NCBI GenBank assembly: GCA_018818425.1
Contig: JAHISB010000018.1
Coordinates: 16,390-80,389, forward strand
Reading direction: 5' to 3'
Length of the DNA stretch: 64,000 nucleotides
Origin: Patescibacteria group bacterium
GTDB taxonomy: Bacteria > Patescibacteriota > Patescibacteriia > UBA1558 > UBA10009
How positions within the stretch are numbered: position 1 is the stretch's first letter; each line of letters begins with the position of its first letter. Of the stretch, positions 44,147 through 64,000 are shown in pieces. The notes under the pieces were generated by a model. The model was given only the letters and a program-made list of their open reading frames with translations, made no database searches and was not told where the DNA came from. Made by a program: the position numbers and the translations under genes.

Positions 44147-44238
44147 ATATTTACCAATTCGCAATTATTCGAGAATTAGCGACATATTCGCGGGGTAAAT
44201 TCGAGATTTATTAGCATTATATTCGTAATAAAAAATAT

Positions 44239-46787: not shown

Positions 46788-46791
46788 AACT

Positions 46792-49064: not shown

Positions 49065-49091
49065 ATAATCAGCTTTTAACTTTTTAACTAT

Positions 49092-49484: not shown

Positions 49485-49694
49485 TAATCAGCCCTAATTT
49501 TGATTGTGGATAAAAGTTGGCAAAAACTATTATTTTATTGTATAATAATATCAGTCTGACATCTAAACTATCCGCTTTATTCCACTATTTTTAGAGATTA
49601 AAATATTAAAATATTAAACTTAATTAAAATTCAATTGATTGAATAATGTCTTTAAATAAGAACATTATTTCAAATCACGAAAGGAATTAAAGAT

Positions 49695-50060
49695 ATGAAA
49701 AAATATCTAAGGAATGGACTGGCTGGCTTAAGCGGCTTAACTCTGCTGCTGGCGCCTTTGCTGGTCAAGGCCCAGATCTCTTTGGGCATCGAGTATGGTT
49801 CTGCTCTAAATTTAGGCAGCAGGGATGTTAGGGCTATGGTTTCCGACATTATTAATGTGTTGCTGGGGTTTTTAGGCATTATTGCCGTGGTTATTATTCT
49901 TTTGGGCGGCTTTAAGTGGATGACGGCCGGCGGCAACGAAGATAAAGTCGGCGAAGCTAAAAAGCTTATTGGCGCTGGCATTATCGGCTTGATTATCATC
50001 CTGGCTGCTTATGCTATTGCCACCTTTATTGTTACTCAATTGGCAGAAGTAACCTATTAA
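49695..50060 (+). CDS. pilin-like array member c (core only)
   Basis: ILLGGFKWMTAGGNEDKVGEAKK core. Good RBS (aaaggaattaaagat ATG). Confidence 0.65.
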   Translation: MKKYLRNGLAGLSGLTLLLAPLLVKAQISLGIEYGSALNLGSRDVRAMVSDIINVLLGFLGIIAVVIILLGGFKWMTAGGNEDKVGEAKKLIGAGIIGLIIILAAYAIATFIVTQLAEVTY

Positions 50061-50223
50061 CTAAAATTGATATAACTTGAGTAATAGCTCATCCTTGCTA
50101 CTTTTAAAAGGGTGGGCTAATGCTTGGATTATATTTAAGTGACAAGTGATCAACTCGGTCTAAGCCGGGTAAATGACAAATGTAAGTAATCTTGGTCATT
50201 TGTCGCTTGTCATTTTTATTTTT

Positions 50224-50688
50224 ATGATTAAGAAGGGGAAAATAGTTATTAAGATTACTCTGGCTTTATTTTTTTCCGCGCTTGTTTGTTTTACAGTAAT
50301 CGCTGGCTCGGCCATGGCTCAAACAGAGCCGCCGGCAAGCCCCGGCTCCAACGCCGCCGAGCGGGCTTTGAATATTTTAGACGCTACGGCCCAGGAGGCC
50401 AAAATAATCTCCAGCGCCCAGGCCGCGCCCACCGCTTACGGCATTATCGGCGATGTCATTAATATAATTCTTAGCTTTTTAGGAGTTGTCTTTTTGCTTC
50501 TAATTATATACGGCGGGATTACCTGGATGAGAGGCGGCACGGTTGTCGGCGGCGGCGCGACCAAAGTAGATATCAACAAGGCCAAGCAGATCATCACTCA
50601 GGCAACTATCGGCTTAGTTATTGTTCTTTTTGCCTATCTGGTAACCAACTTTGTGATTTTTAAAATTATTGAAGTCGCCGTAGACTAA
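50224..50688 (+). CDS. pilin-like array member d
   Basis: IYGGITWMRGGTVVGGGATKVDINKAKQ is a divergent core with an insertion. Confidence 0.55.
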   Translation: MIKKGKIVIKITLALFFSALVCFTVIAGSAMAQTEPPASPGSNAAERALNILDATAQEAKIISSAQAAPTAYGIIGDVINIILSFLGVVFLLLIIYGGITWMRGGTVVGGGATKVDINKAKQIITQATIGLVIVLFAYLVTNFVIFKIIEVAVD

Positions 50689-50692
50689 AACT

Positions 50693-51262
50693 ATGAATCA
50701 CTCTAAATTAACACTAGCCATGCTTATTATTATTTCCTGTTTGCTGATAACTCCGCTTATCAGTTATGCTGTCAATATTAGCGATGTTATTAACGACTTA
50801 GACAAAACCGCTCAAAATGCTAGAATAATAGGAGAAAACCCGGCCGAAGCCGCCACTATTTACGATATTATCGGCCAGATACTTAATTTGGTTTTAACCT
50901 CTTTGGGAGTCATCTTCCTGCTTTTAATGATTTATGGCGGCCTGACCTGGATGACGGCCGGCGGCAATCAGGAAAAAGTTAAAACAGCCGGCTCAATAAT
51001 CAATAAAGCGGTTATCGGCTTAATAATAATTCTATTAGCCTGGCTTTTAACCAATTTTGTTATTTTTAGAATTATTGATGTAACCACCAGCAGTACTGTT
51101 CTTAGTAATTGTAACCCCGCTGACTGCGATAACGAATGTAAAGATGCTGGCGCTCCGACGGGTTGCTGTACCAGAGGCAGCGAGGAGCCAAGCAGCCCTT
51201 ATTATGATGATATTAGCTGTGAATGCCAAACCGATCCCGATATTTCATTAATTTGCCAATAA
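50693..51262 (+). CDS. pilin-like array member e, with a Cys-rich C-terminal tail
   Basis: IYGGLTWMTAGGNQEKVKTAGS core. The C-terminus is CNPADCDNECKDAGAPTGCCTRG...CECQTDPDISLICQ. Confidence 0.6.
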   Translation: MNHSKLTLAMLIIISCLLITPLISYAVNISDVINDLDKTAQNARIIGENPAEAATIYDIIGQILNLVLTSLGVIFLLLMIYGGLTWMTAGGNQEKVKTAGSIINKAVIGLIIILLAWLLTNFVIFRIIDVTTSSTVLSNCNPADCDNECKDAGAPTGCCTRGSEEPSSPYYDDISCECQTDPDISLICQ

Positions 51263-51290
51263 ACTTTCCATAAAATATTTCTAAAACTCT

Positions 51291-51878
51291 ATGACTAAAA
51301 AAATTACTATCCTTTTTTCAATTATAATCTTAGCGGGAATTCTCCTCTTGCCGGCTTTGACTTTAGCCCAGCAAACCTGCCCCTACAGTACTCTGGAAGA
51401 ATGCCAAAAATGGGCTCTTAATAAAGTGGGTGATAAAATTGGCTATGGCTCTGCCGGCGCAGTTACATCAGCCGACTTATCTTATACCATCGGCCAGGTA
51501 GTTTCTTATGTTTTGGCTTTTTTGGGCGTGGCCTTTTTAGTTATTGTGGTTTACTCCGGCATCCAGTGGATGACGGCCGGCGGCAATGCGGAAGCCGTTA
51601 AAAAAGCCCGCGATAGATTAGTTAACGCCGCTATTGGTTTAGTCATTGTTTTAGGCGCTTATGCTATTACTTGGTTTGTGGTAAGTAAGTTACAAACTTC
51701 CGTTTCTCCACCAACTTCAACTCCTCCTTATACGCCCCCAACTGCTTCTTGTTTAGATTATACTAATTGCGCTGGTGAATTTAAAACTTGGTGTGATGGT
51801 CAAAGTGGAATAACACAATGCCCGCAAGATCCTAACGAACCAAATTATCATAAATGTTACTGTGATTTAAGTACATGA
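51291..51878 (+). CDS. pilin-like array member f, with a Cys-rich C-terminal tail
   Basis: VYSGIQWMTAGGNAEAVKKARD core. The C-terminus is a P/T-rich linker followed by a Cys-rich domain. Confidence 0.6.
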   Translation: MTKKITILFSIIILAGILLLPALTLAQQTCPYSTLEECQKWALNKVGDKIGYGSAGAVTSADLSYTIGQVVSYVLAFLGVAFLVIVVYSGIQWMTAGGNAEAVKKARDRLVNAAIGLVIVLGAYAITWFVVSKLQTSVSPPTSTPPYTPPTASCLDYTNCAGEFKTWCDGQSGITQCPQDPNEPNYHKCYCDLST

Positions 51879-51913
51879 TATAATAATTATTTTAATTAAT
51901 AACAATTTAAAAA

Positions 51914-52315
51914 ATGTTTAAAAAAATAACTATTACTCTTCTCATATTATGGACTGTTATACCAATGTATTATGCGCTAGCGGAAACTGGAGAAACACCA
52001 GCTAATCCGCTAACTATGAACCTTCTTCCTGATCTTCAACAAGCCGCTACCGGTGCACAATATGGCTCAGCCACTGAAAACACCATCCCCCAAATAGTCG
52101 GCTTAATTGTCAGGGCGGTTTTAAGCTTTGTGGGCGCCATCTTTTTTATTCTAATTATCTTTTCCGGCATCCAGTGGATGACCGCCGGCGGCAACGAGGA
52201 AAAAATAACCAAAGCCCGCGCCAGAATGACCAATGCCGCTATTGGCCTGGCCATTACCACGGCCGCCTACTTTATTACCTGGTTTATCAGCGAAGCTTTA
52301 TTATCCAATGTTTAA
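51914..52315 (+). CDS. pilin-like array member g (core only)
   Basis: IFSGIQWMTAGGNEEKITKARA core. Confidence 0.6.
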   Translation: MFKKITITLLILWTVIPMYYALAETGETPANPLTMNLLPDLQQAATGAQYGSATENTIPQIVGLIVRAVLSFVGAIFFILIIFSGIQWMTAGGNEEKITKARARMTNAAIGLAITTAAYFITWFISEALLSNV

Positions 52316-53120
52316 AATCACAGCTACAATCTGTTTTTTATTGCTGATGTTCTTTTTTATTACCGCCACTGCTTTGGCTCAAGATATCGGCATCACCAAT
52401 TCCTTAAAAACCATTGCCGACACCGGCGGTTTTAAAACCGACAGCGTAGCTGACGATGCCTTTTTAAATACCGCTGCCGGCGGATTAATAGCTATGGCTC
52501 TGGGCTTAGTAGGCCTGTTATTTTTAGGTTTAACTATTTATTCCGGCATCCAGTGGATGACGGCCGGCGGCAACGAAGAGCAGGTCGCCAAAGCCCGGAA
52601 AAAAATAATTAACGCCGCCATCGGCCTGGGCGTGGTTATTCTGGCTTATGTGATTTCCAACGCTGTTTTTGCCCTTTTTTATCAGATATCCGAACGCGAC
52701 AATACCGGCATAACTCCGCAAGGCCTAGCCTGCCAAACCAGCAACGAGTGCCCGGGCAGTTATGTCTGCGTAGACAACCAGTGCAAAAAACTTTGCAGCA
52801 ATGACGGCGACTGCGAGTACCCCGGCGAGGTCTGCAATACCTGGACCGGCGCTTGCGAAACCGGCTGGGGCTCTAACTGCGAAAACAATTCCGACTGCCC
52901 GTCCCAGGCGCCAGTTTGCCAGTCGTTTTTAATCTGGAAAATGTGCACCTGCACCGGACCTAATAGCTGTGAAGGAATTACGCCTCCCAAACCTTACTGT
53001 ATGGACATAGAAACACAATCCCAGGGCTATTCAGAAAACCCTGCTGAATGCGTTCAATGCTACGAAGACAACCACTGTCCCGGCAGCAGCTGCAACCAAA
53101 ATACTCATACCTGTAATTAA
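52308..53120 (+). CDS. pilin-like array member h, with a 150-aa Cys-rich C-terminal domain ending in CNQNTHTC
   Basis: Start at MFKITAT, which overlaps the stop of member g. IYSGIQWMTAGGNEEQVAKARK core. EGF-like Cys spacing in the tail. Confidence 0.6.
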   Translation: MFKITATICFLLLMFFFITATALAQDIGITNSLKTIADTGGFKTDSVADDAFLNTAAGGLIAMALGLVGLLFLGLTIYSGIQWMTAGGNEEQVAKARKKIINAAIGLGVVILAYVISNAVFALFYQISERDNTGITPQGLACQTSNECPGSYVCVDNQCKKLCSNDGDCEYPGEVCNTWTGACETGWGSNCENNSDCPSQAPVCQSFLIWKMCTCTGPNSCEGITPPKPYCMDIETQSQGYSENPAECVQCYEDNHCPGSSCNQNTHTCN

Positions 53121-53121
53121 T

Positions 53122-54033
53122 ATGAAACTGAACTATAAAATAATAATCATTTCTGCAACTATGGCTTTAAGCTTTTTAATTCTGCAAAATGCTGAAGCTT
53201 TTACAAATGATTTTACAAATTATTTAAACCAGGCGGCCCAGCAAGCCGATTTTCCCGCTACCCAAGCCCAGGAAAATTTTTTAAATTCTAGGGTCGGGCA
53301 GATAATCGGGGTAATTGTCAGTTTTATCGGCATTCTTTTTTTAGGATTGACTGTTTACTCCGGCATCCAGTGGATGACCGCCGGCGGCAACGAAGAAACA
53401 GTAACCAAAGCCCGAAAAAGAGTGGTTAACGGCGCCATTGGCGTTGGCTTAACCTTGTGCGCTTTTATAATTGCCAATTTCTACTTTAGTTATTTTGAAA
53501 GCAAGCTTTTAACCACGCCTTCTACAATTACCACAGGGCCTGTTGGCTACCAAGCCGCTGACTGCCAAACCAATGCCCAGTGCCAAGACCGCCAGGTTAT
53601 TACGCCCGGCGCCGGCATAGCCAACCCGTCCAATCCTAACGGACCCCGTGTAATGTTCTGCTTCGGCGGCAAATGCGTGGAATGCAGCGGCTCTTGTCCT
53701 GCTGGTTTTATGTGCGATTCTGGTTCAGGGCTATGCTTATCAGCTGCTGATGAATGTGGCAATATTGCCAGCATTTCTCAATGTGTTTTTCGCTCTGACT
53801 GCATTTGGGAAGCTGACCCTAACGGAACCGGCTGGGAAGACGGACTTTGTGTAGATTCTTCAAGTTATTCAACTAATTGTTTACCGCCCCAAGCGCCCTC
53901 CGCCGCTCCTTATTGCGTCTACGACAGTAGCCATGGCGGTTATTTATGGGTGGAGTGCGCTAATGATAATAATTGTCCTGGTTGGCTGGGCTTTAATAGT
54001 TGTAATCAAGTCACTCATGAATGTGTCCTTTAA
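53122..54033 (+). CDS. pilin-like array member i, with a 180-aa Cys-rich C-terminal domain ending in CNQVTHEC
   Basis: VYSGIQWMTAGGNEETVTKARK core. The C-terminal motif is shared with member h. Confidence 0.6.
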   Translation: MKLNYKIIIISATMALSFLILQNAEAFTNDFTNYLNQAAQQADFPATQAQENFLNSRVGQIIGVIVSFIGILFLGLTVYSGIQWMTAGGNEETVTKARKRVVNGAIGVGLTLCAFIIANFYFSYFESKLLTTPSTITTGPVGYQAADCQTNAQCQDRQVITPGAGIANPSNPNGPRVMFCFGGKCVECSGSCPAGFMCDSGSGLCLSAADECGNIASISQCVFRSDCIWEADPNGTGWEDGLCVDSSSYSTNCLPPQAPSAAPYCVYDSSHGGYLWVECANDNNCPGWLGFNSCNQVTHECVL

Positions 54034-54042
54034 TTAAAAACA

Positions 54043-54429
54043 ATGCTAAAAAAAACAAAATCAATCTGGCTGTGGCTGAATGTAATTTTCTTTTTTCTGC
54101 TGGCTAAAACCGCCTGGGCTTTTACTATTGCCAGTCCTAGGCAAACCTTGGAAAGCATCTCTGGCGGAGCTAATTTTACTGCCAGCAACAAGCCAATTCA
54201 GGAAATAGTTATAGCCATCATCTTTTTTGTGCTGGGCTTGCTGGGCATTCTTTTTTTAACCCTGATGATTATCGGCGGCATCCAGTGGATGACTTCCGGC
54301 GGCAACGAGGAGAAACTGGGCAAAGCCAAAGCCCGCGTTAAAAACGCTTTTATCGGCTTTGCCATTGTAATGATAAGCTACTCCATTACTGTCTTTATGG
54401 TTAATATGTTCAGCCGGTCAACTTTTTAA
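54043..54429 (+). CDS. pilin-like array member j (core only)
   Basis: IIGGIQWMTSGGNEEKLGKAKA core. Confidence 0.6.
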   Translation: MLKKTKSIWLWLNVIFFFLLAKTAWAFTIASPRQTLESISGGANFTASNKPIQEIVIAIIFFVLGLLGILFLTLMIIGGIQWMTSGGNEEKLGKAKARVKNAFIGFAIVMISYSITVFMVNMFSRSTF

Positions 54430-54434
54430 AATTT

Positions 54435-54848
54435 ATGTTGAAAAAAATTTTTTACTTATTTAATCTGGCTAGCTTATTCTGCTATGTTAAGATTGCCAAG
54501 GCCATTAATATTGATACTGATCCGTTAAACCGCTTAGAGTGGGCCTCGCAGCATGCCGGCTATAATGTCTATAATAAAACGCCCTTTCAGGCGGTTATTA
54601 TCACCATCATCCATTATGTGCTGGGTTTTGTGGGCATGATTTTTGTAGTCTTAATTTTAATAGCCGGCTACCAATGGATGACCTCCGGCGGCAACGAAGA
54701 AAAAATCGGCAAAGCCAGGGATAAATTAAGAGAAGCTGTTATAGGCCTAATAATTATTTTAATTGCCTGGTCCATAACCTGGTTTACAGCCAACATGCTG
54801 ATTAAATCCACCACGCCCGGTTACTACAGCTTTTTCCCTTGGCCGTAA
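54435..54848 (+). CDS. pilin-like array member k (core only)
   Basis: LIAGYQWMTSGGNEEKIGKARD core. Confidence 0.6.
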   Translation: MLKKIFYLFNLASLFCYVKIAKAINIDTDPLNRLEWASQHAGYNVYNKTPFQAVIITIIHYVLGFVGMIFVVLILIAGYQWMTSGGNEEKIGKARDKLREAVIGLIIILIAWSITWFTANMLIKSTTPGYYSFFPWP

Positions 54849-54862
54849 AATTTAATAAAAAA

Positions 54863-54888
54863 AGCGCCTCTATAACCTGAGGCGCCCT
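54863..54888. terminator. hairpin terminator shared by the convergent pilin-like array and the gene at 54870..55916
   Basis: aaaaaaagcgcctctataacctgaggcgcc: an 8-bp GC-rich stem preceded by an A-run. Confidence 0.5.
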
Positions 54889-55916
54889 GTTCCCGCTCCT
54901 TGAGGGCGGGTTTTAATTTGTAGAACGTGCCGAAAGTATATCCCTGAACCTAGGGATTTTGATTCGGCATAAATCATAAAGATTGAGTGATGGCCGGCCG
55001 GAGTTGTGCACAAAGAATCCTTAAAATACATCACCTCAACCTGAACTCTTTCTCCGGCCAAAACCTCAAACTCTTTATGTTTACCAGGTTCTAATTTTCC
55101 TTCAAACCCAGCTATGAGTTTTGCCCAGTAAGGGGTATTGTTTATAATCACGCCCTTTCGGCGCAGGGCCTTTTCCAAATCCCGGTCATAGATAACAGCC
55201 AGCCGATCTGTCTTAATGGGGGTCCACAAGCTGATGCTGCTTACAGAAACTCTTTTCCAGCTATGGATCCTATCCTCAACTCTTAATTCGCCCCTGACCA
55301 TTAAGGGTTGGCCTTCTAATACTCTAACGGCCCTTTCTTTGCCTGGGAAAATCAGATAGCGGAGATTTCTTTTGCCAAGCACAGGAACTGTTATAGGCCG
55401 GCTGGATTGATTATTCACCAATACTTTAAAGGCCTTTGCTGCCTTCTTCTTAGGAGGGCCATTCAATTCTAATTTACTAACTTTACCGGGCTGGTCTTTT
55501 ATAATTTCCTCCAAGTTATTTTTATGGTCAATAACTTTTTTGCCACCCTTGATTGTTACTATCTTAATCTTCAAACCTTTAAAGAGGGTCAATCCTTGGT
55601 CGGCAAAATAGCTAATCAGCAGGCCCGCCTTGGCCTTAGGCCACTCCCATTTTTCCCGGAATTTGACCAAAGCGCCCTGTTGATTGTACTCTTGCCTGCT
55701 GGCAGTAACTTTAGGCGTTATGGCCAGTAAAGAATCCAAACTAACCTGCTTTTGCGAACCGGGTCCTAGTACCTTAACCATAACCATTTCTGATTGATCA
55801 TACACTATGGTTATTTCCAGCCAGCAATCAGATGGATTGCTTAGCTCCAGGGTGTAATTGCCGGCCCAGCTGACTGCGGCCAGCATCAAGCCAATGATCG
55901 TTAATGATCTTTTCAT
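54870..55916 (-). CDS. secreted hypothetical protein
   Basis: Start taken at MKRSLTIIGLMLAAVSWA (signal peptide), with a GGAG RBS upstream. No recognisable domain. Confidence 0.5.
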   Translation of the reverse strand: MKRSLTIIGLMLAAVSWAGNYTLELSNPSDCWLEITIVYDQSEMVMVKVLGPGSQKQVSLDSLLAITPKVTASRQEYNQQGALVKFREKWEWPKAKAGLLISYFADQGLTLFKGLKIKIVTIKGGKKVIDHKNNLEEIIKDQPGKVSKLELNGPPKKKAAKAFKVLVNNQSSRPITVPVLGKRNLRYLIFPGKERAVRVLEGQPLMVRGELRVEDRIHSWKRVSVSSISLWTPIKTDRLAVIYDRDLEKALRRKGVIINNTPYWAKLIAGFEGKLEPGKHKEFEVLAGERVQVEVMYFKDSLCTTPAGHHSIFMIYAESKSLGSGIYFRHVLQIKTRPQGAGTGRLRL

Positions 55917-56021
55917 TTCTATCTCCATTGATTTTTTGAGAGAACAAATTATTATATTATGCACTATTAAATAAATTTTGTCAAGATATTTATTTAATCC
56001 AATCTCTGATAAAATTGAAGG

Positions 56022-58010
56022 ATGAAAATAAGTAAATTAATAAATTTTTTCAAGAAAAAAAGCTGGTTGATTCTTTGGCTGGCTATTGGCTTATATTTTT
56101 TGATTTTTTCCTTAATCTGCATCTGGAAATATTTTAATTTTGGCTACAACGGCCTGGATTTAGCCATTATTAACCAGGTTTTTTATAATTCGGCCCAGGG
56201 CAATCTTTTTGGCCTGACTATTCACCCCCATTCTTATTTAGGCGACCACTTTGCTTTGATTCTTATTCTGCTTTTGCCTTTTTATTACTTGTGGCAGCAT
56301 CCCATCAATCTTTTAATCTTACAATCTTTAATTTTAGCTCTGTGCGCCTGGCCCCTGTATTTAATTGCCAAACATAAATTATCTAATGCCTGGCCTTTAT
56401 TTATTGCCCTGGCCTGGCTGACAAATCCTTTTGTCCAGAATATTAATATCTTTGAGTTTCATTTTCTGCCCTGGGCAATTTTCTTTTTGTTCTGGACTTT
56501 TTATTTTTACCAGCAAAAAAACTTGGCGGCTTTTTTAGTCTTTGCTGTTTTGAGTTTGGCAGTCAGAGAGGATGTGGCTTTAGTTGTTTTGATGTTTTCG
56601 GCATTGGCTCTGATTAACAGACGTTCTAAAGTTTGGATTTTTACGCCCGGTTTAATGGCCCTAAGCTGGTTTGCCGCGGCCACAACATTTATTGCTTCTA
56701 TTACGCCTACCGGCAGTTACAAATTTTTTTATTACTACTCCTGGCTGGGCGGAAATTTAAACGAAATTTTGACCAATGCTTTAGTTGAACCCCAGCTAAT
56801 TTTATACCGCTTCTTGGCTTTAAATAATCTGCTTTTTATTTTAGCTCTGCTGCTGCCCTTTGCTTTTATCTTTTTTGACCTTGCGCTGCTCCTTTTAGGC
56901 CTGCTCGTTTTTCTGCAGCTTTCGCTGGGCGGCTCTAATAATTCATTGATTGTTCTTAAAACCCATTACTCCAGCTTGCTCTTGCCAGCCCTGTTTATTG
57001 GCTATGCGTATGGTTTGGCCAAGTTGGGTCAGACAAAATTCAAGTTTTTTAAATTTAAAAAATATCTCTTTAAAGAAAGAGGATTATTGGTAATGATTAT
57101 CGGCGCGGCCGCAATCTATAGCTGTCTAGCTTTGGGGCCGCTGCCCGCAGTTGTTAAACAGCTGTTTAAGCCGGGCTCCTTTTCAGAGACCAGGGAATTA
57201 AAAACTGAATTTTACCAAAGCCTGCCCCAAACACAAAGCATAGCCGCCTCTTACGAATTTTTAACTAATCTTTCCTCGCGGCCCAGCATTTATTCTTTGC
57301 ACTATGCCTATATCGGCAAAAAGCAGTTTAGCGATATTGATTATAAACTGCCGGCAGACACCCGGACTTTGCTTTTTGATTTTGACGATCTGGTGACCTA
57401 CTCGGTTCAATTCCCTAACAGCAGCCAGTGGCAGAAGTATTATTTAACTGGTGATGATAATTTTAGAAAAATTATTCAGGCGGGAAATTACGGCGTGGTT
57501 AAAATAGCCGACACCTTGGTCAGAATGGATAAAAATGCTGAAACTGATATTCATCTATATCAAACCGCTCAAAAATTTACTGATATTCAACATCCTCAAA
57601 ATATTGACTTTGGCAACGGTTTAAAATTTCTGGGCTGGTCTGATAATCCGCCTCTTTTGGATTCTGATAAAAATTTCTTGCCCGCGGCTCTTTATTTTCA
57701 AACTAAGCAAAGAATAGAAAAAGACTATCAGTTAAAGCTGACGCTTAACAACGAGGAAGGGCAGATTGTTAAGCAAAAATATTATCCTCTGGCCTATGGG
57801 CTATACCCAACCAGCGAATGGCAAGCCAACGAAATAGTCAAAATCAACTATTGGTTTTTACTGCCTCAAAAAATAGCTGACAGTAATTATCAGCTAGAGT
57901 TGCAGTTGGTCTACTTAGAGGGCTTTTTAAAACTAAACGGCCTCCGCTCGGCCGTGCCTCAAATCACTCAAGAAACTATTTTAGAACCAAAAATTACATT
58001 GATTCCCTAA
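56022..58010 (+). CDS. large polytopic membrane protein with a C-terminal extracytoplasmic domain (DUF2079 / GT-C-like putative glycosyltransferase)
   Basis: 662 aa. About 10 or more TM helices in the N-terminal 370 aa, then a soluble domain. Confidence 0.45.
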   Translation: MKISKLINFFKKKSWLILWLAIGLYFLIFSLICIWKYFNFGYNGLDLAIINQVFYNSAQGNLFGLTIHPHSYLGDHFALILILLLPFYYLWQHPINLLILQSLILALCAWPLYLIAKHKLSNAWPLFIALAWLTNPFVQNINIFEFHFLPWAIFFLFWTFYFYQQKNLAAFLVFAVLSLAVREDVALVVLMFSALALINRRSKVWIFTPGLMALSWFAAATTFIASITPTGSYKFFYYYSWLGGNLNEILTNALVEPQLILYRFLALNNLLFILALLLPFAFIFFDLALLLLGLLVFLQLSLGGSNNSLIVLKTHYSSLLLPALFIGYAYGLAKLGQTKFKFFKFKKYLFKERGLLVMIIGAAAIYSCLALGPLPAVVKQLFKPGSFSETRELKTEFYQSLPQTQSIAASYEFLTNLSSRPSIYSLHYAYIGKKQFSDIDYKLPADTRTLLFDFDDLVTYSVQFPNSSQWQKYYLTGDDNFRKIIQAGNYGVVKIADTLVRMDKNAETDIHLYQTAQKFTDIQHPQNIDFGNGLKFLGWSDNPPLLDSDKNFLPAALYFQTKQRIEKDYQLKLTLNNEEGQIVKQKYYPLAYGLYPTSEWQANEIVKINYWFLLPQKIADSNYQLELQLVYLEGFLKLNGLRSAVPQITQETILEPKITLIP

Positions 58011-58022
58011 AACACCCTAGTT

Positions 58023-59537
58023 TCATTTAAGGACTTGATAAATTTCCGCGTCCTTATTTTGATATATTAATTTTAAATAATCTTGAAGGCCAGGATTGTA
58101 ATCGCCTAATCTTTTTTCAATATCGCTGTAAAATAAATAATCTATGTTATTCTGCTGTAAAAAAATTTTCTTTTCCTGATCAAACTGATTATCTTTAAAA
58201 AACCACTCAATTTTATCAAAATTTTCCTTAAAGCTGGTAAAATAGCCGCCGGCTAAATAAGAAATGTGTCCGGTATAACCAGAGATAACTGTATTCCAAG
58301 TGCCAAAATCAGCAAAAATTCTGCTTTCTGTCGGCAAATTATCTTTCATCCAGTAAAATATTTCTATATATTTTCTTGCTATATAATGCGGGGGTCCGTG
58401 GAATTTAATAATTAATAGCTCATAACTAAAAATGGAGAAATAGCTTTGAGTTAAAAATAAAATAATTATTATAGCTGTAATTATCCTGCTGAATTGCCTT
58501 TTTAATTTTATTAAAATAAATTTAAATCCATGATAGGCTAAAATGGTCAAAGGGATCGATAAGCCTAAAACGAAGCGACGATTAAATTGAATTTGAGAAA
58601 AAATTATAAACAAAGAAGATAAACACCATAATATTAAATACCAGTATATCTCTTCCTTTCTCTTCTTTATCGCTCCAATAATAGCTAAAGGAGAAAGCAA
58701 GCCATAACCATAAATTAAAAACTGCCAACTAGGCAAGGGAGTAAAATTTTGCATAGCCCAACGGCTTAAAGCTTCTTCAGCCGAAAAGATATAATAATAG
58801 TATACAGCTCCAAGAGTTACTGATAATATAGTAATTAAAGCCGGTAAAAAATTTTTAAATTTTTTGGTGGATAAATATCTATAAATAGACCAACTTAAAA
58901 TAACTACCAATAAAGAGACGGCATCATAAAAATGAACTAAAAATAATAATAACGCCCCTAAAAAAATAGTAAAAAGATGAATATTTTTGTGAGTTTTAAA
59001 ATATTTTAAAACTGCGTGATAAATTAAGATAAATAAAACTAAAACTAAAGCAAATAAGGGGCTAAAGTATAAATTATAAAAGGTATCTTTTTCAATCAGC
59101 CAAGTAAAAATACCAGCGGCAAATATACAAAAAGGAAATAACCAAATATTTTGTTCTAAATTAAAAAACTCCTTTAAAAATTTTCTTAAAAGAATACAGA
59201 AAATAATTGCAAAGATTACTTTAAAAAGTTGATAAACTAAAAAAATGTTTAAGCTGAATATTTTAACTAGCCAGCCCATTATTAGCCATAAAGGATGAAA
59301 AAATAAGTCTCGTTGCTCTATGGGATTATATAAATTTTTAAAAAGAACTTTTCCTTGAGCCGCTTGAGTGATAAAAGAAAAGTGGCCTGTCATATCCCCC
59401 ACTCTAGTGGGTTGATTGCCAATATAATAGAATTCTTCATTAGAATAAAAATAACCCGCCAGATGAATAAAGGTAATTAAAAAAACCAAAACAATAACGG
59501 TTAAAATAAAAACTTTTCTTTCTTTATTGACAGCCAT
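58023..59537 (-). CDS. polytopic membrane protein, paralog family (GT-C-like), member 1
   Basis: The N-terminal TM helix, the YYxG/NQP..GD motif and the C-terminal block (IDYLFY...LGDYNP...YQNKDAEIYQV) are shared with 59574..61193 and 61193..62839. Confidence 0.5.
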   Translation of the reverse strand: MAVNKERKVFILTVIVLVFLITFIHLAGYFYSNEEFYYIGNQPTRVGDMTGHFSFITQAAQGKVLFKNLYNPIEQRDLFFHPLWLIMGWLVKIFSLNIFLVYQLFKVIFAIIFCILLRKFLKEFFNLEQNIWLFPFCIFAAGIFTWLIEKDTFYNLYFSPLFALVLVLFILIYHAVLKYFKTHKNIHLFTIFLGALLLFLVHFYDAVSLLVVILSWSIYRYLSTKKFKNFLPALITILSVTLGAVYYYYIFSAEEALSRWAMQNFTPLPSWQFLIYGYGLLSPLAIIGAIKKRKEEIYWYLILWCLSSLFIIFSQIQFNRRFVLGLSIPLTILAYHGFKFILIKLKRQFSRIITAIIIILFLTQSYFSIFSYELLIIKFHGPPHYIARKYIEIFYWMKDNLPTESRIFADFGTWNTVISGYTGHISYLAGGYFTSFKENFDKIEWFFKDNQFDQEKKIFLQQNNIDYLFYSDIEKRLGDYNPGLQDYLKLIYQNKDAEIYQVLK

Positions 59538-59573
59538 AAAAAATTTAATCTTTGCGCTTAAAAAGCTCTATGA

Positions 59574-61193
59574 TTAAGGTACTGGTTTCACTTGATAAAT
59601 CGCTACCTCGCTATTTTGAAAAACTTGTTTCAAATACTCTTTATTTTGAGGATTAAATTCGCCCAAAGCCATCTCCCTTGAACCGTAATAAAGATAATCA
59701 ATGCCTTCCCTCGATAACCAACGGGCTTTTAGCTTGTCCCCCCGATTATCTTTAAAAAACCATTCCTCAACATCATATTTTTTTATCAGCCAGTTATTGG
59801 TCTGAATTTTATAGCCTAAATATACAAACCTGCCCGCAATCGAAGGAATTATGCTGCCCATTTGACTTTGAGATAATATAATATCTGATTTATCTGAATT
59901 TTCCTTCAGCCACCATATAGCTTCTTTTTCTCCCTTAGTTAAGTGGAATTCTCCAATTGAAAAAAAATGATAATTTAATCCTAAAAAAAACAGGTTTGTG
60001 CTTGTCATTAAAAATATAAAAATAATTAATATAACTATTTTAATCGTAAATTTATTATTTATTTTATAGTATAGTTTTGTTTTTTTAATTTTATCCAGCA
60101 AAACAGCCGCCCCCAAAACCGCTAATAGTGCCATAGGGATATGCATGCCGTTGCCTAATCTGCGCTGAAAAGACAATGGCATATATAAAAGCAGCCAGGA
60201 AGTTAAAGACCAAACCGCTAAAAAATTTAAATATTTATTTTTGCTTTTCCATGCAGGTGAAATACCAAAAAGAAAAAAAATAAAGATTAAACCAAAACCA
60301 GCCATATAATTATGCGGCGGGGGCGACAACTGAACTAATTGTTCAGCCCAGCCTGCGAACCCGGGTGAAAAAATTCTAAAAATAAAAAAATAAAAAATCG
60401 AGGCGAAGGAAATTAAAAAGAAAATTACTAATTTAAAAAAATCCGGCCAGGGCCATAATTTATTTTTTATAATATTAACTATAAACCAAACTGATAGAAT
60501 AAAAAATGCGATAAAAACATCATATGGATGAAAAAATCCTAATAAACAGCCGATGATGCCCATGCCTATTACTTCTGGATATTTGGCGATTTTAAATCGG
60601 GCGATTGTCCACCAAAATATTAGTAAAAGACAAATTTGGGAAAGAATGAATAAAGGGGAATGAAAAAGGGTCAAAAAAGTATTGCCTTCGCTATACCAAA
60701 TATCGGCGCCAAAATAACCATTGGGATTCTTTAATATATAATTAATAAAAAAGGTGAAAAAACCAAAGCCAGAACTAATGGCTAAAGTAACAAAGGCAAT
60801 TTTTCTCCACGTCTCTTTTAAAAAAATCTTGGAAACAAACAAATACAATAAATATAAGAATATAAAACCAAAAATAACTCTAAATAAATGGTAAGTAAAT
60901 AACGGCGGCAGTTTAGTAATTCCCGAAAACCAGCCTAAGCTTGCCCACAAGGGCGAAAAATAACCGGCTTGTGGTTCGGAGGTATATAAATTATGGATAA
61001 AAAAATAACCCTGTCTAGCTTCTTCGATCTGGGAGAGGTAAACCATTTTATCAGCTGCTCCAACCAAAGTTCCGCCGGTATAATAATCTTTATTTGAATT
61101 ATATACTCCAATATAGGGCAATAAGGTAATAATTAACACAAGTACTATTATACTTATTATAAACTTTCTTTTTTTAATATTGATTATTTTCAT
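59574..61193 (-). CDS. polytopic membrane protein, paralog family (GT-C-like), member 2
   Basis: About 65% identical to member 3 by inspection. EARQGYFFIHNLYTSEPQAGYFSPLW is conserved. Confidence 0.55.
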   Translation of the reverse strand: MKIINIKKRKFIISIIVLVLIITLLPYIGVYNSNKDYYTGGTLVGAADKMVYLSQIEEARQGYFFIHNLYTSEPQAGYFSPLWASLGWFSGITKLPPLFTYHLFRVIFGFIFLYLLYLFVSKIFLKETWRKIAFVTLAISSGFGFFTFFINYILKNPNGYFGADIWYSEGNTFLTLFHSPLFILSQICLLLIFWWTIARFKIAKYPEVIGMGIIGCLLGFFHPYDVFIAFFILSVWFIVNIIKNKLWPWPDFFKLVIFFLISFASIFYFFIFRIFSPGFAGWAEQLVQLSPPPHNYMAGFGLIFIFFLFGISPAWKSKNKYLNFLAVWSLTSWLLLYMPLSFQRRLGNGMHIPMALLAVLGAAVLLDKIKKTKLYYKINNKFTIKIVILIIFIFLMTSTNLFFLGLNYHFFSIGEFHLTKGEKEAIWWLKENSDKSDIILSQSQMGSIIPSIAGRFVYLGYKIQTNNWLIKKYDVEEWFFKDNRGDKLKARWLSREGIDYLYYGSREMALGEFNPQNKEYLKQVFQNSEVAIYQVKPVP

Positions 61194-62839
61194 TATTTAA
61201 CTTTAATCCTATAAATTGTCACCTCTTGATTTTTATATACTTCCTCTAAATAACTTTTTTCGTCAGGGTTAAAATTTCCCAAAGCCATCTCCCTTGAACC
61301 ATGATAAAGATAATCAATGCCTTCCCTTAATAACCAGCGGTATTTTAAAGCGTCCCCCTGATTATCTTTAAAAAACCATTCCTCAACATCATATTTTTTT
61401 ATCAGCCAGTTATTGGTCTGGTGGCCATGGCCTAAATAGACATAACGGCCCGATATAGCCGGGATTATGCTGCCGATGGTATTCTTTGATAAAATTACTT
61501 CTGTTGTTTTTAGGTTATCCTTAAACCAAATTATTGCCTCTTTTTCGTTTTGGGTTATATAAAAGCCTTTAAGGGCATGATAAAAAAATTCAGCGCCAAT
61601 TAAAAATAAATTCGAACTTATAGCCAAAAAAACCAAAATTAAAATCGCTGTTGTTTTAATAATGTATTGTTTATTTACAATTTTAAAAAGCCATAACTGC
61701 TTTAATTTATTTAAAATTACCACTAAGCCAAAAATGGCTAATATCACCATAGGCATATGCAGCCCGTTGCCCAGTCTTCTTTGAGATTGCAAAGGGGCAT
61801 ATAGTAAAAGCCATGAAACAATAGCCCAGATAGCTAAAAAGTTGAAATATCTATTTCTGCTTTTCCAGGCCGGATAAACGCCGAAAAGAAAAAGAATAAA
61901 AATTAAACCATAACCAATCATATAATTATATATTCTTGGTGAAAGGGTAATATTTTGTATGGCCCAGCCAGCAAAGCCCGGAGAAAAATATTTTAAAAGG
62001 AAAAAATAACCTATAGGCAGAAAAGAAATAAATAAGACTATAATAAGCTTTAAAAAGACCGGCCAGAACCATTCTTTCTTTTGGACTGTTTTTACTGCAA
62101 ACCAAACTAAGAGAACAGAAAAAATAATAACTATATCATAGGGATGAATAAAGCCTAAAAAACCGCCTATTAAACCAATGGCTGCTGCTTCGGTATATTT
62201 AGCCGAAGTTAATCTGGCAATCGTCCACCAAAATATTAATAAAAGACAAATTTGGGAAAGAATGAATAAAGGGGAATGAAAAAGGGTCAAAAAAGTATTG
62301 CCTTCGCTAAACCAAATATCGGTGCCAAAATAATTATACATATTCTCCGCTGTCCAGGGCCTAATTACGGTAAATATTCCCAGCCCTGAACTAAAAGATA
62401 GCGCCAAAAAGGTAATTTTTCTCCATTTAACGCTAGAGAAGATTTGAGAAATAAAAAGATAAAGTAGATATAAAAAGATAAAACCGAAAATGATTCTAAA
62501 AAAATGTAAAGTAAATAGCGGTGATAGTTTAGTAGCTCTAGAAAACCAGCCTAAACCGGTCCACAAGGGCGAGAGATAGCCTATTTGTGGTTCGGAAGTA
62601 TATAAATTATGAACCAAAGCATTGCCTTGCCGGGCTTCTTCAATTTGGGAAAGGTAAACCATTTTATCGGCGGCAGCAATAAAAGTTCCGCCAGTAAAAT
62701 AATCATCACTAGATCTAACCCAGGAAAAAGCTAAAGGAATTAAAGTAATTAATAATACCGTAAAAGAAACTATAAATACGAATTCTTTCTCTTTTCTACT
62801 GAGTGATTTTAAAACTTGTTTTAGATAAGTCAACATCAA
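61193..62839 (-). CDS. polytopic membrane protein, paralog family (GT-C-like), member 3
   Basis: Tandem paralog of member 2. Its stop and the start of member 2 abut at 61193. Confidence 0.55.
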   Translation of the reverse strand: MMLTYLKQVLKSLSRKEKEFVFIVSFTVLLITLIPLAFSWVRSSDDYFTGGTFIAAADKMVYLSQIEEARQGNALVHNLYTSEPQIGYLSPLWTGLGWFSRATKLSPLFTLHFFRIIFGFIFLYLLYLFISQIFSSVKWRKITFLALSFSSGLGIFTVIRPWTAENMYNYFGTDIWFSEGNTFLTLFHSPLFILSQICLLLIFWWTIARLTSAKYTEAAAIGLIGGFLGFIHPYDIVIIFSVLLVWFAVKTVQKKEWFWPVFLKLIIVLFISFLPIGYFFLLKYFSPGFAGWAIQNITLSPRIYNYMIGYGLIFILFLFGVYPAWKSRNRYFNFLAIWAIVSWLLLYAPLQSQRRLGNGLHMPMVILAIFGLVVILNKLKQLWLFKIVNKQYIIKTTAILILVFLAISSNLFLIGAEFFYHALKGFYITQNEKEAIIWFKDNLKTTEVILSKNTIGSIIPAISGRYVYLGHGHQTNNWLIKKYDVEEWFFKDNQGDALKYRWLLREGIDYLYHGSREMALGNFNPDEKSYLEEVYKNQEVTIYRIKVK

Positions 62840-62840
62840 T

Positions 62841-64000
62841 TTATAAATTATGTTGATTACAATGAAAAACTCTTAGATCATCGTTAATCTGCTCGGTGGG
62901 ACATCTTTCTATAATATTTTTATAAGAGGCATTTTCAATAATGCATAATCTCTCATTATTTAAAAAGGGGCAAAAATCTTTAATATATGTAAAAAAATAA
63001 AATTCTTCTTTGGTGTTATCTAAATATTCCCGTTTCATCGCATCAATCAGCAAAACCTTATTAGGAATAATAACATTTAATGACTGATGGCAATTTCTTA
63101 AATAAATTGGTATATTTGCAGGAACATTATTATCTTGCAAATAATCTCTGGCCTGCCAAATCCAATACGGACGATACACAACTTTATAATCTATTTTAAT
63201 CGACCAAAATAAATAACCATTAATAATAATTATAAGAAAAATAAATAAATACCTAAGATTTTTTTCAAGAAATATCTTTCTAAAATAAATTACTAATAAT
63301 ATATTAAATAAAACAAAAATTGGTAAAAATATTCTATGGTGGGCAGATTCAGAAGGAACTAATAATACACTAATAAAAATATATATTATTATAAAAATTT
63401 CTAAGAATGAAAGTTTGGATAAATCAATTCTCTTTTTATTTTTTCTAAAAAAATTGAAAATAGTATTTAAAAAATAAATTGTAAAGATATAAACAAAAAC
63501 ACTAACTAACCATTGTAATTTCCAGTCTAGGGAACCTTGGGTGGAAAAGTTGACCCAAAATCTAACCAAAAAAATCCACGGAATAGTAAATAATAATAGT
63601 AATGTAAAATTAATTATAATTTGTTTATTAATTCTTTCTTTTTTATTAAAAAACCAATAATAAATAATAAATAAAGAAGTTGCCATAAAAGAAATTATAT
63701 GGGTGTGGAATAATAAAATTAAACTTAAAGTAATTAAATAGTAATATTTATTCTTGTTAGTCTGGCATAGTTTAATAAAAAAATATAAACTCAAAAAAAC
63801 TAATAAAATCAATAAAGAAAAATAACGGCACATTCGGCCGTATTCTACTAAGGGAATGTTTACTGCATAGAAAGCGCTGGCAATTAAAGCTGTCTTAGGA
63901 CTATATAACTCTCTGGTTATTAAATATAATAAGAATATCGATAATATTGAAAAAATTATAAATAGAAACCTGGCATTAAAGGTTGTAAAACCTGCGAGCT
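62841..64000 (-). CDS. polytopic membrane protein, 5' end probably beyond the window (the frame stays open upstream of Met 63833 to the window edge)
   Basis: The ORF track starts at the first Met (63833). Hand translation of the same frame for about 100 nt upstream (63834..63935) shows no stop codon. Highly hydrophobic. Confidence 0.4.
   Translation of the reverse strand, partial: LAGFTTFNARFLFIIFSILSIFLLYLITRELYSPKTALIASAFYAVNIPLVEYGRMCRYFSLLILLVFLSLYFFIKLCQTNKNKYYYLITLSLILLFHTHIISFMATSLFIIYYWFFNKKERINKQIIINFTLLLLFTIPWIFLVRFWVNFSTQGSLDWKLQWLVSVFVYIFTIYFLNTIFNFFRKNKKRIDLSKLSFLEIFIIIYIFISVLLVPSESAHHRIFLPIFVLFNILLVIYFRKIFLEKNLRYLFIFLIIIINGYLFWSIKIDYKVVYRPYWIWQARDYLQDNNVPANIPIYLRNCHQSLNVIIPNKVLLIDAMKREYLDNTKEEFYFFTYIKDFCPFLNNERLCIIENASYKNIIERCPTEQINDDLRVFHCNQHNL

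Follow-up and report, generated by a model that had tools for sequence, protein, structure and literature searches.

In mycobacteria and corynebacteria, MptA/MptB, AftA-D, EmbA-C and PimE work stepwise, together with the donor synthase Ppm1, on one envelope glycoconjugate. The mycobacterial Mpt/Aft/Emb enzymes and YfhO of Bacillus and Listeria act from polyprenyl-phosphate sugars on envelope polymers, and MptA/B-type and LtaS-like genes are typical of such polymers. Low-GC variable cassettes with conserved flanking genes are typical of polysaccharide-specificity loci. In the Gtr-type three-component systems and GT136, a GT2 polyprenyl-phosphate sugar synthase is combined with a GT-C enzyme that attaches the sugar on the non-cytoplasmic side, and it is the GT-C enzyme that sets serotype or strain specificity (PMC11127046). 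Arrays of VirB2-like T4SS_pilin genes are already known from Patescibacteria (PMC12102498).

The window analysed here is a stretch of 64,000 nucleotides from a Patescibacteria contig. Its last part probably forms one end of a surface-glycosylation locus conserved in Patescibacteria, in which a GT-C operon (PMT_2-B-A-C) faces a convergent GT-C gene of the DUF2079 family. The features of the region are as follows.

45903..48162, (+): GalU-type NTP_transferase and solute-binding protein (Pfam); far end of the conserved block
48159..54848, (+): array of 11 VirB2-like T4SS_pilin genes (Pfam PF18895 matches), several of them with S/T/P-rich linkers and C-terminal extensions rich in Cys
54870..55964, (-): secreted or soluble protein of unassigned function, 352-364 aa; poorly conserved, with a signal-peptide-like N-terminus
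56022..58010, (+): DUF2079 protein, 662 aa; predicted GT-C-fold membrane domain plus C-terminal beta-sandwich domains; Pfam DUF2079 (PF09852), E 1e-53
58023..59537, (-): C, 504 aa; more divergent subclade; its orthologue L1_e is 62% identical
59574..61193, (-): A, 539 aa; unannotated membrane protein of predicted GT-C fold, with 11 predicted TM helices and a C-terminal extracytoplasmic alpha/beta domain
61193..62839, (-): B, 547 aa from the ATG at 62836, or 548 aa from a TTG
62841..64000, (-): PMT_2-family GT-C protein, 494 aa in full; the gene reaches to about 64325, beyond the window

PMT_2, B, A and C make up a compact minus-strand operon, with PMT_2 as the first gene visible in the window, and the DUF2079 gene converges on C with a gap of 12 nt. 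Translational coupling of B and A is suggested by the overlap between the B stop codon and the A start codon (TAATG). The region had earlier been described as holding five large, even giant, membrane proteins. This picture has to be corrected on three points. First, the product of 54870-55964 is not polytopic: beyond its signal-peptide-like N-terminus it has no hydrophobic segment above threshold, searches of Pfam and NCBIfam gave no match, and of the fetched loci L001 alone has a homologue of it (E ~1e-17). Secondly, sizes of 504-662 aa are not giant. Thirdly, the last gene does not encode 330 aa: its frame is open to the window end, and the full gene, read from the same contig (fetched as L002), encodes the 494-aa protein, which matches Pfam PMT_2 with E 6.5e-14 (52.9 bits, cut-off 26.1).

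A, B and C are indeed the three tandem paralogues that the earlier note had recognized. A and B are identical in 60% of residues, A and C in 29-31%, and B and C in 31%; BLASTP of A against C gives a full-length alignment with E 5e-54 and 29% identity. Each has the N-terminal TM helix and the conserved C-terminal block described before, with 11-12 hydrophobic segments. The YY(T)GG motif proposed as common to all three is found in A (DYYTGG) and B (DYFTGG) but not in C (YYIGN), and the family consensus is YTG. D48 is invariant in the family, and D164, E169, H222, D225, W282, Q285 and N286 are near-invariant. C lacks D164 and H178, both near-invariant, and may therefore be inactive or work differently. 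The family is large, with 8,572 cluster representatives at E up to 1e-3, and Pfam and NCBIfam searches of A, B and C found no model for it; Pfam STT3 did not match the family, nor did A, B or C match Pfam DUF6541 at E up to 1. Among 42 homologues of A, five match DUF6541 (PF20176; best E 1.5e-16), and one matches DUF2142 or EpsG weakly. DUF6541, DUF2142 and EpsG are families of the membrane glycan-enzyme type. DUF6541 and DUF2079 are not mentioned in the literature searched.

Since sequence-level searches of A, B and C gave no match to a characterised family, it might be supposed that these proteins are transporters or other polytopic proteins that only resemble GT-C enzymes. The earlier note had proposed a Foldseek comparison with GT-C structures, with a transporter fold as the opposing outcome. 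The AlphaFold2 model of A (pLDDT 92.8, pTM 0.92) had 25 matches in the PDB at E up to ~1e-3, and 25 of 25 were GT-C enzymes (STT3, AglB, PglB, DPY19, AftA, ArnT); STT3, AglB and PglB came top, with E 2e-9 to 6e-7 and TM scores of 0.5-0.6, whereas transporters stayed at a probability <0.1. The model of the DUF2079 protein (pLDDT 89.5) matched STT3, ArnT, PglB, ALG9 and EmbC at E 8e-5 to 3e-3, and GT-C enzymes were its sole matches at E up to 1e-3. By profile-profile comparison, no relation between DUF2079 and the A family was detectable (probability 3%). In A, model helices and the positive-inside rule put every conserved polar residue in a loop predicted to be extracytoplasmic, with the K/R-rich loops on the other side, and the conserved acidic residues occupy the positions of GT-C catalytic residues. 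The C-terminal domain of the family profile aligns weakly with that of yeast STT3 (E 0.79), in agreement with the fold match; the WWDxG motif of oligosaccharyltransferases (OSTs) is absent from A, B and C. In related loci, GT2 genes lie adjacent to members of the family, and one database protein (P0261) fuses a GT2 domain to an A/B/C-family domain. Together with the DUF6541, DUF2142 and EpsG matches among the homologues, these results make a transporter-like identity very improbable. Because its significant structural matches are all GT-C enzymes, the models support a GT-C fold for A, and likewise for its DUF2079 neighbour and, by Pfam, for PMT_2, as the GT-C-like shape noticed earlier had indicated.

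If A and its neighbours act as GT-C enzymes do, they would draw the sugar from a polyprenyl-phosphate donor, which a small GT2 synthase would produce on the cytoplasmic side and which would have to be flipped before use. At the outer face, the GT-C enzyme would move the sugar onto a growing surface glycoconjugate. The catalytic residues would be Asp48, which is invariant and opens external loop 1, and D164/E169 in external loop 2, and the C-terminal alpha/beta domain may help to hold the acceptor; distinct paralogues might make distinct linkages or modify distinct positions.

A and B align in register with an offset of 1616 nt and are 69% identical at the nucleotide level overall. Two segments are far more alike.

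60607..60717, (-): candidate conversion tract 1, A copy; residues 159-196, covering the last part of extracytoplasmic loop 2 (with D164 and E169) and the TM helix that follows
62223..62333, (-): candidate conversion tract 1, B copy; pairs with 60607-60717
59662..59804, (-): candidate conversion tract 2, A copy; residues 464-511, core of the C-terminal domain
61278..61420, (-): candidate conversion tract 2, B copy; pairs with 59662-59804

Tract 1 is identical at 108/111 nt, with a 70-nt perfect run (60624-60693 / 62240-62309); tract 2 is identical at 131/143 nt, with a 61-nt perfect run. The near-identical tract of the earlier note is thus real, but its A coordinates (60598..60690) were shifted by about 9 nt and too short, and tract 2 had been missed. 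The tracts fall on the most conserved segments of the proteins, in the catalytic loop and C-terminal domain, and the contig comes from a metagenome assembly (k141_561449). An assembly artefact, or selection on the nucleotides themselves (an embedded RNA element or a regulatory site), might accordingly be considered. At aligned positions where both genes encode one and the same degenerate amino acid, A and B use identical codons in a run of up to 30 (permutation p ~1e-4), as against runs of 4-12 (p >0.03) in orthologue and other paralogue pairs. Codons are the same between A and B at 66/71 positions inside the tracts and 127/230 outside; for B and its orthologue, the same columns show no excess (35/65 inside, 171/297 outside). 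This orthologue (L1_b in L001, 73% identical to B) has the same tract residues with many synonymous differences, at sites where A and B share codons. Over tract 1, nucleotide identity to B is 95% for A, 82% for L1_b and 77% for L3. Collapse in assembly is unlikely because the perfect runs are shorter than the 141-mer implied by the contig name; moreover, A and B are both intact and in frame, the 3 and 12 mismatches are scattered, and an independent conversion tract is present in a different assembly (L007). Artefact or nucleotide selection is thus scarcely credible. The synonymous-site tests and the orthologues agree in supporting recent gene conversion, as first proposed for the tandem set, and the exchange of at least two short tracts between A and B. 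The tract 2 peptide QTNNWLIKKYDVEEWFFKDN is common only to A, B and L1_b, which implies a transfer from B to A in at least this tract.

Comparison with related genomes shows a block that recurs in 15 loci: GalU, solute-binding protein, pilins, DUF2079, a variable GT-C set, p528 and PGI/PMI. GalU and the solute-binding protein also flank the pilin array in L014-L018. The DUF2079 gene adjoins an A/B/C-family member in every bacterial locus examined and so forms a conserved bookend, and p528 is a remote homologue of the A/B/C family (hhalign probability 96%, E 4e-9). The paralogue set between these two ranges from one gene to six or more, and GT2, PMT_2, MptA_B, methyltransferase or sulfatase genes may be present in addition. 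A GT2 gene (233-247 aa) lies within the cassette in L001, L007, L013, L014, L015, L016 and L017. No GT2 synthase or flippase adjoins the cassette in the 74 kb of the present contig that were seen; this, like the missing D164/H178 of C, goes against a surface-glycosylation locus. In the genome studied, GC3 is 0.24-0.31 in p430, PMT_2, B, A and C, 0.43-0.44 in both bookends and 0.43-0.54 in the rest of the window, which suggests that the cassette is compositionally foreign and was laterally replaced; in seven other loci GC3 is uniform. Low GC3 might also have another cause, for example low expression. Because the set varies in size and is of foreign composition here, the locus looks like a glycan-specificity cassette that varies between strains and is exchanged laterally, in the manner of an O-antigen locus.

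What the enzymes modify is a separate question. The earlier note had suggested glycosylation of the pilin-like proteins. On this view the enzymes would glycosylate the adjacent VirB2-like pilins, N- or O-linked, paralogue diversity giving strain-specific glycoforms. Such pilin glycosylation is plausible from the conserved gene order: the array lies beside DUF2079 and GT-C genes in all bacterial loci whose length allows this to be seen, over a GC3 range of 0.23 to 0.66 and down to ~25-30% protein identity, including Buchananbacteria, and the sugar-activation genes GalU and PGI/PMI bracket the pilins and GT-C genes jointly. The structurally nearest proteins to A are protein glycosyltransferases (OST and DPY19), the cassette includes a PMT_2 enzyme, and the long pilins of the array have S/T/P-rich linkers beyond the second TM helix. 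However, the housekeeping genes ruvC, yebC and glgA are also syntenic in related loci, so that adjacency may reflect conserved chromosome order alone. The acceptor-binding motif WWDxG is missing, N-x-S/T sequons are few in the pilins, an archaeal homologue lies in a polysaccharide cluster that has no pilins, and cassettes elsewhere carry MptA/B-type and LtaS-like genes. We regard the pilins as a rather doubtful acceptor, and another surface protein as an improbable one.

Alternatively, the enzymes may act serially from polyprenyl-phosphate sugars to build or decorate not a protein but a glycopolymer of the envelope, for instance a cell-wall polysaccharide, a lipoglycan or a teichoic-acid-like polymer. 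GT-C families stand in series in these loci (the A/B/C family, DUF2079, PMT_2, p528 and MptA_B_family), and related cassettes add GT2 synthases, a methyltransferase, a sulfatase/LtaS-like gene and LPG_synthase_TM. A has AftA as one of its close structural matches; the archaeal homologue is beside Wzx, GT4, GT9, GT2 and deacetylase genes; a low-GC variable cassette sits between conserved genes; and a Wzx flippase and a Wzy_C protein are encoded 16-20 kb upstream in the window. Against this, we know of no envelope polymer or lipoglycan of such kind described for this Patescibacteria lineage, the OSTs that match the fold best modify proteins, and the strict adjacency to the pilin array is left unexplained. 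An envelope glycopolymer or lipoglycan is, in our judgement, the acceptor with a little under an even chance of being right; what remains falls to something else.

Set against the described systems, A is structurally closest to STT3/AglB/PglB (CAZy GT66). It shares with these enzymes an N-in polytopic membrane domain that is followed by an extracytoplasmic alpha/beta domain at the C-terminus, an acidic residue opening external loop 1 (D48, as against D47 in yeast STT3) and a second acidic pair, in external loop 2. Unlike OSTs, the A/B/C family has S-x-x-x-G-N-x-I-P where WWDxG aligns, A has 11 predicted TM helices in ~540 aa rather than 13 in 640-870 aa, and the genes occur as tandem variable paralogues. 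The GT2 genes inside related cassettes and the GT2 fusion recall the Gtr/GT136 systems; however, no GtrA- or MATE-type flippase was found in the cassette and no GT2 gene lies beside it in this contig, many GT-C enzymes stand in series here instead of one, and there is no sequence relation to GtrC or GT136. The mycobacterial GT-C sets are similar in their multiple GT-C enzymes, the AftA match, the MptA_B_family genes of the L014 cassette and the PGI/PMI neighbour, but belong to a different phylum and envelope, and here the genes are gathered in one variable cassette. Finally, as in gene conversion of surface antigens and pilins, mosaic tracts (97% and 92% identical) lie in genes otherwise 69% identical, and the exchange appears non-reciprocal with an inferable donor. 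In contrast to those systems, only two or three events are visible here, and the effect of the A/B tracts is to homogenise segments of the conserved catalytic and core parts, not to diversify variable parts.

The genes considered here are carried on a 104.4-kb metagenomic contig (k141_561449 in ENA; NCBI locus tags KJ840_02065/02070). The contig was also fetched in reverse orientation as locus L002, which continues about 10 kb beyond the end of the window (window x = 72837 - L002 x). The region is organised as follows.

48159-54848, plus strand: pilin array of 11 VirB2-like genes (PF18895), ending at 54848
54870-55964, minus strand: secreted protein gene, signal-peptide-like N-terminus, no family match
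56022-58010, plus strand: DUF2079 gene (Pfam DUF2079)
58023-59537, minus strand: gene C, tightly packed with A, B and the PMT_2 gene
59574-61193, minus strand: gene A, tightly packed with C, B and the PMT_2 gene
61193-62839, minus strand: gene B, tightly packed with C, A and the PMT_2 gene
62841 onward, past the window end, minus strand: PMT_2 gene (Pfam PMT_2), 494 aa in full

The earlier note had five large membrane proteins following the pilin array. This holds for the DUF2079, C, A, B and PMT_2 products, all of GT-C type, but not for the 54870-55964 product, an unrelated secreted protein: its N-terminus resembles a signal peptide, it lacks any hydrophobic segment above threshold, and it matches no family in Pfam or NCBIfam. 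The last gene is longer than 330 aa; it runs off the window, and the full 494-aa protein, taken from L002, matches PMT_2 (PF13231) well above the cut-off (52.9 bits vs 26.1, E 6.5e-14), while the 330-aa fragment inside the window has no Pfam match alone. The start codon of A is overlapped by the stop codon of B in a TAATG junction. The database entry for B is the 547-aa version starting at ATG; no database record was found for a 548-aa version with a TTG start. C and the DUF2079 gene are convergent with a gap of 12 nt. Convergence of DUF2079 with the adjoining GT-C gene was also seen in nine related loci (L001, L003, L005, L006, L008, L014-L016 and L018), and in most relatives the 3' ends overlap by 8-20 nt. 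There is no terminator-like hairpin between 58010 and 58023, and a promoter and terminator scan gave matches no commoner than in shuffled sequence. Overlapping terminator-like hairpins lie on both strands at 54861-54910, between the last gene of the array and the 3' end of the convergent 54870-55964 gene. Elsewhere in the window, genes of mobile or defence type (an rve-family transposase, two Fic-domain proteins and a GmrSD/HNH endonuclease) were seen at 30106-30945, 30979-31863, 40569-41627 and 392-1561, and GC dips to 0.35 around 26-32 kb.

A, B and C gave nothing meaningful against Pfam and NCBIfam, and their homologues are "hypothetical proteins" of Patescibacteria, including Komeilibacteria, together with one from a Woesearchaeota archaeon. 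For A, AlphaFold2 gave a confident model from 42 homologues (pLDDT 92.8, pTM 0.92). When the model was compared with the PDB by Foldseek, all 25 matches at E <= ~1e-3 were GT-C glycosyltransferases: STT3 of the yeast and human oligosaccharyltransferase (OST; E 2e-9 to 4e-7, with TM-scores of 0.5-0.6 for the OST matches), AglB (4e-9 to 9e-8), the C-mannosyltransferase DPY19 (3e-7), PglB (6e-7 to 3e-6), AftA (1e-6) and ArnT (1e-3). Transporters and receptors appeared at Foldseek probability below 0.1 only, so a transporter fold, the outcome which the earlier note had set against its GT-C proposal, was not observed. The DUF2079 gene encodes a full-length domain (PF09852, profile positions 2-458 of 459, E 1e-53, 183.6 bits vs a cut-off of 28.2). 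The model of its product (pLDDT 89.5), which has C-terminal beta-sandwich domains in addition, matched only GT-C structures at E <= 1e-3 (STT3, ArnT, PglB, ALG9 and EmbC). Both models therefore bear out the GT-C fold. A family relationship between DUF2079 and A was undetectable by profile-profile comparison, and the PMT_2 gene was rejected as a paralogue of A. DUF2079, PMT_2 and p528, a further protein encoded beyond the window, have no match among PDB sequences, and neither DUF2079 nor DUF6541, a Pfam family considered below, is mentioned in the literature searched.

The model of A comprises 11 long helices plus an alpha/beta domain at the C-terminus (residues ~414-539), and short K/R-rich loops alternate with loops bearing conserved polar residues. 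By the positive-inside rule, D48, D164, E169, H222 and D225, then W282, Q285, N286, Q343 and R344, and the C-terminal block G446 ... G460-H-x-x-Q464-T465 would all be on the outer face. D48, at the start of the helix after TM1, is invariant in the 42 sequences; we take it to occupy the position of the catalytic Asp in external loop 1 of GT-C enzymes, and D164 and E169 presumably correspond to their second acidic motif, that of external loop 2. The features by which GT-C enzymes are recognised, 7-13 TM helices and an acidic residue in the loop after TM1, are both found in the model, with sidedness assigned by the same rule. An exhaustive profile search collected 8,572 cluster representatives at E <= 1e-3, and 3,758 at E <= 1e-30; the A/B/C family is large and uncharted. 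Pfam DUF6541 (PF20176) is matched by 5 of the 42 homologues (best E 1.5e-16) and by none of A, B and C at E <= 1, which places A, B and C in a related family outside the coverage of that model. In one database match of 1352 aa (P0253), a YfhO-like C-terminal segment is fused to the A/B/C family. A fold and a probable chemistry can hereby be assigned to an unannotated family of about 8,500 clusters at 50% identity, and likewise to DUF2079.

That A, B and C are paralogues was well founded: A and B share 60% of residues, A/C and B/C 31%, and BLASTP aligns A with C over the full length (E 5e-54). Each has 11-12 hydrophobic segments, and the N-terminal TM helix and conserved C-terminal block attributed to all three are indeed common to them. 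The "YYTGG" motif is present in A and B only; in C it reads YYIGN, and in the family consensus YTG. D164 and H178 are absent from C.

Aligned in register at an offset of 1616 nt, A and B are identical at 69% of their nucleotides. The near-identical tract previously described within them is real, and its coordinates in B were right; those in A were about 9 nt off, and a second tract had been missed. Tract 1 (60607-60717 in A, 62223-62333 in B) spans 111 nt with 3 mismatches and a perfect run of 70 nt; tract 2 (59662-59804 in A, 61278-61420 in B) spans 143 nt with 12 mismatches and a perfect run of 61 nt. Self-BLAST of the loci at >=88% identity missed both, because BLAST extended them into flanks of lower identity, and codon-run tests were used in its place. 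In these permutation tests only aligned codons for the same degenerate amino acid were counted. The longest run of identical codons between A and B was 30 (p about 1e-4), against runs of 6-10 in orthologue pairs (p above 0.19). Identical codons amounted to 66/71 inside the tracts and 127/230 outside (Fisher p 4e-10, the tracts having been chosen post hoc). The control comparison of B with its orthologue in L001 (L1_b, 73% identical protein) gave no excess in the same columns (35/65 vs 171/297). Moreover, the L1_b codons for SEGNTFLTL.HSPLFILSQICLLLIFWW depart from those of B at about ten synonymous sites, while the codons of A are those of B. The synonymous differences and the flat orthologue control rule out selection on the nucleotides of the tracts, and the tests indicate a recent, non-reciprocal exchange between A and B, as the proposal of gene conversion within the tandem set had it. 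Since the tract 2 peptide QTNNWLIKKYDVEEWFFKDN is common only to B, L1_b and A, it points to B as the probable donor and A as the recipient for this tract. Assembly collapse, which would make the tracts an artefact, is unlikely, because the 141-mer that the contig name implies is longer than either perfect run, both genes are intact and the mismatches are scattered. Among 31 paralogue pairs in seven loci, p fell below 1/3000 in only one other pair, in L007, so conversion appears to recur occasionally in the A/B/C family. That pair, two tandem family members, shares a tract of 201 nt at 93.5% identity (12419-12619 vs 13964-14164), which covers the D48 loop region and includes a run of 34 identical codons. 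Gene conversion as such is ordinary biology here.

Besides L002, 16 further loci were examined, with ORFs classified by profiles built in the analysis; genome contigs had been scanned with 18 closer family sequences. One order was found in 15/15 bacterial loci that were long enough (L002 included). From the GalU end to the PGI/PMI end, it reads NTP_transferase (GalU), solute-binding protein, VirB2-like pilin array, DUF2079, GT-C genes, p528, PGI/PMI (bact-PGI_C), often followed by yebC, ruvC and glgA. The number of GT-C genes between DUF2079 and p528 varies from one to at least six, and p528 is kept at the far end of this cassette in 13 loci.

Content of the cassette between p528 and DUF2079
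L003-L006: one family member
L008, L009: two family members
Window contig: p430, PMT_2, B, A, C
L001: five family members, GT2, p405
L013: five large genes, GT2, PMT_2
L014: GT2, methyltransferase, two MptA_B_family genes, two family members
L015, L016, L018: GT2 genes, PMT_2, sulfatase/LtaS-like gene, LPG_synthase_TM

L006, L008 and L009 (CAZPMS010000005.1, CAZCGY010000001.1 and CAZBMC010000033.1) are titled "uncultured Gammaproteobacteria bacterium" and carry the Patescibacteria-type block; the label is probably wrong. The Woesearchaeota homologue lies among Wzx, GT4, GT9, GT2 and deacetylase genes and has no pilin genes around it. The gene-order association is conserved and previously undescribed, and the family is new and unannotated within a known fold.

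In the window contig the cassette also differs in composition. GC3 is 0.24-0.31 in p430, PMT_2, B, A and C, against 0.43-0.44 in the bookends p528 and DUF2079 and 0.43-0.54 in other window genes; the low-GC3 stretch covers 58023-64000 of the window and goes on to about 65620 on the contig (L002 7213-14814). Seven other loci show uniform GC3 throughout the block. Outside the window, directly past the stop codon of p528, lies a frameshifted remnant, 150 nt long, of the 3' end of a PMT_2 gene (L002 6999-7147, ~65690-65838), 89% identical to window 62923-63070, which may be a scar of cassette rearrangement. The foreign GC3, this remnant and the variable content together suggest that lateral exchange has replaced the cassette between its conserved flanks, as happens at O-antigen and capsule loci.

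VirB2-like pilin arrays are widespread in Patescibacteria, a group whose members live attached to host cells. The A/B/C family and DUF2079 share a conserved block with the pilin array and sugar-activation genes, and the set of enzymes between the bookends is swapped among lineages. The enzymes may act on the VirB2-like pilins, an assignment that is plausible but on balance rather doubtful. Adjacency to the array is strict across lineages far apart in composition (GC3 0.23-0.66) and sequence, GalU and PGI/PMI bracket pilin and enzyme genes together, the closest solved structures are protein glycosyltransferases, a PMT_2 enzyme is present, and the long pilins have S/T/P-rich linkers. However, the synteny extends to housekeeping genes, sequons are few, and A, B and C are without WWDxG, the motif of the OST C-terminal domain that binds the +2 Ser/Thr of the sequon. 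Furthermore, related cassettes contain MptA/B-type, LtaS-like and LPG-synthase genes, which suggest an envelope polymer; a glycopolymer or lipoglycan acceptor has not quite an even chance of being correct, and proteins other than the pilins are a very improbable acceptor. Were the pilins the acceptor, the genes would found a new branch of OST-like protein glycosylation in bacteria and would be candidates for determining host specificity; were it an envelope polymer, they would give the first pointer to such a polymer in the lineage.

In the array itself, four long pilins (189-303 aa) combine S/T/P-rich linkers with Cys-rich C-terminal extensions (8-21 Cys); a fifth (48159-49064) has 301 aa and 24 Cys, and the ORF at 52233-53120 overlaps the preceding gene and has an uncertain start. 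A survey of VirB2-like pilin arrays in Patescibacteria described 441 arrays of 2-11 genes and reported them essential in one cultivated species tested (PMC12102498). The most far-reaching interpretation is that the super-locus of ABY1-type Patescibacteria (Komeilibacteria, Buchananbacteria and relatives) is a pilin-dedicated protein-glycosylation machine, composed of a WWDxG-less STT3-like GT-C family, DUF2079 and the DWDDFP-bearing p528, in which a swapped and gene-converted cassette gives strain-specific glycoforms that tune host-cell recognition. As a whole this is unlikely; if true, it would amount to a previously undescribed bacterial relative of the OST pathway, coupled to surface variation.

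With regard to the sugar donor, a GT2 of 233-247 aa lies inside the cassette in seven loci and agrees in size and family with polyprenyl-phosphate sugar synthases such as GtrB and DPM1, and in one database protein of 790 aa (P0261) a GT2 is fused to the A/B/C family. Both observations lend indirect support to a lipid-linked donor. Polyprenyl-phosphate sugars would then serve as donors, catalysis would proceed via D48 and D164/E169, and each paralogue would add a separate sugar or linkage. Upstream in the window, 36903-40402 and 41863-45768 encode a Wzx-type flippase (Polysacc_synt, 36903-38315) and an O-antigen ligase-like Wzy_C protein. Next come a B12-binding radical SAM/DUF4070 protein, an ECF sigma factor and a possible anti-sigma factor, a protein of 509 aa without family match. 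Published work describes three-component GT-C glycosylation and the features that define GT-C enzymes (PMC11127046). In such Gtr-like systems a polyprenyl-phosphate sugar synthase, a flippase and a GT-C enzyme are encoded together. The GT-C component is present here; however, GT2 genes occur in the seven related loci and none adjoins the window cassette, in which no flippase of GtrA or MATE type was seen either.

The hallmarks of OSTs include acidic motifs in external loops 1 and 2 and a glutamate in external loop 5 (TIXE/SVSE). In the A/B/C family alignment, D48, D164 and E169 are conserved in the loops expected for the acidic motifs, and no conserved acidic residue was identified in the later loop (W282/Q285/N286, Q343/R344). 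In place of the OST WWDxG the aligned consensus is ILSxxxxGNxIPA, with S-x-x-x-G-N-x-I-P at the WWDYG position of STT3. The family C-terminal domain resembles that of yeast STT3 in a profile search of PDB sequences, weakly and below threshold (E 0.79), and neither A, B and C nor the 42 homologues match Pfam STT3 at E <= 1. No OST of Patescibacteria is described in the literature searched. p528 (L002 5408-6994, beyond the window) is remotely homologous to the A family (hhalign probability 96%, E 4e-9), and its invariant DWDDFP falls close to the STT3 WWDYG, the transitive alignment being off by one residue; it is a candidate OST-like enzyme, as a lead only. Because the defining OST motif and a match to the STT3 sequence model are both lacking, A, B and C are not filed as OSTs; judging from the predicted structure, they appear to be GT-C enzymes whose nearest likeness is to the OSTs.
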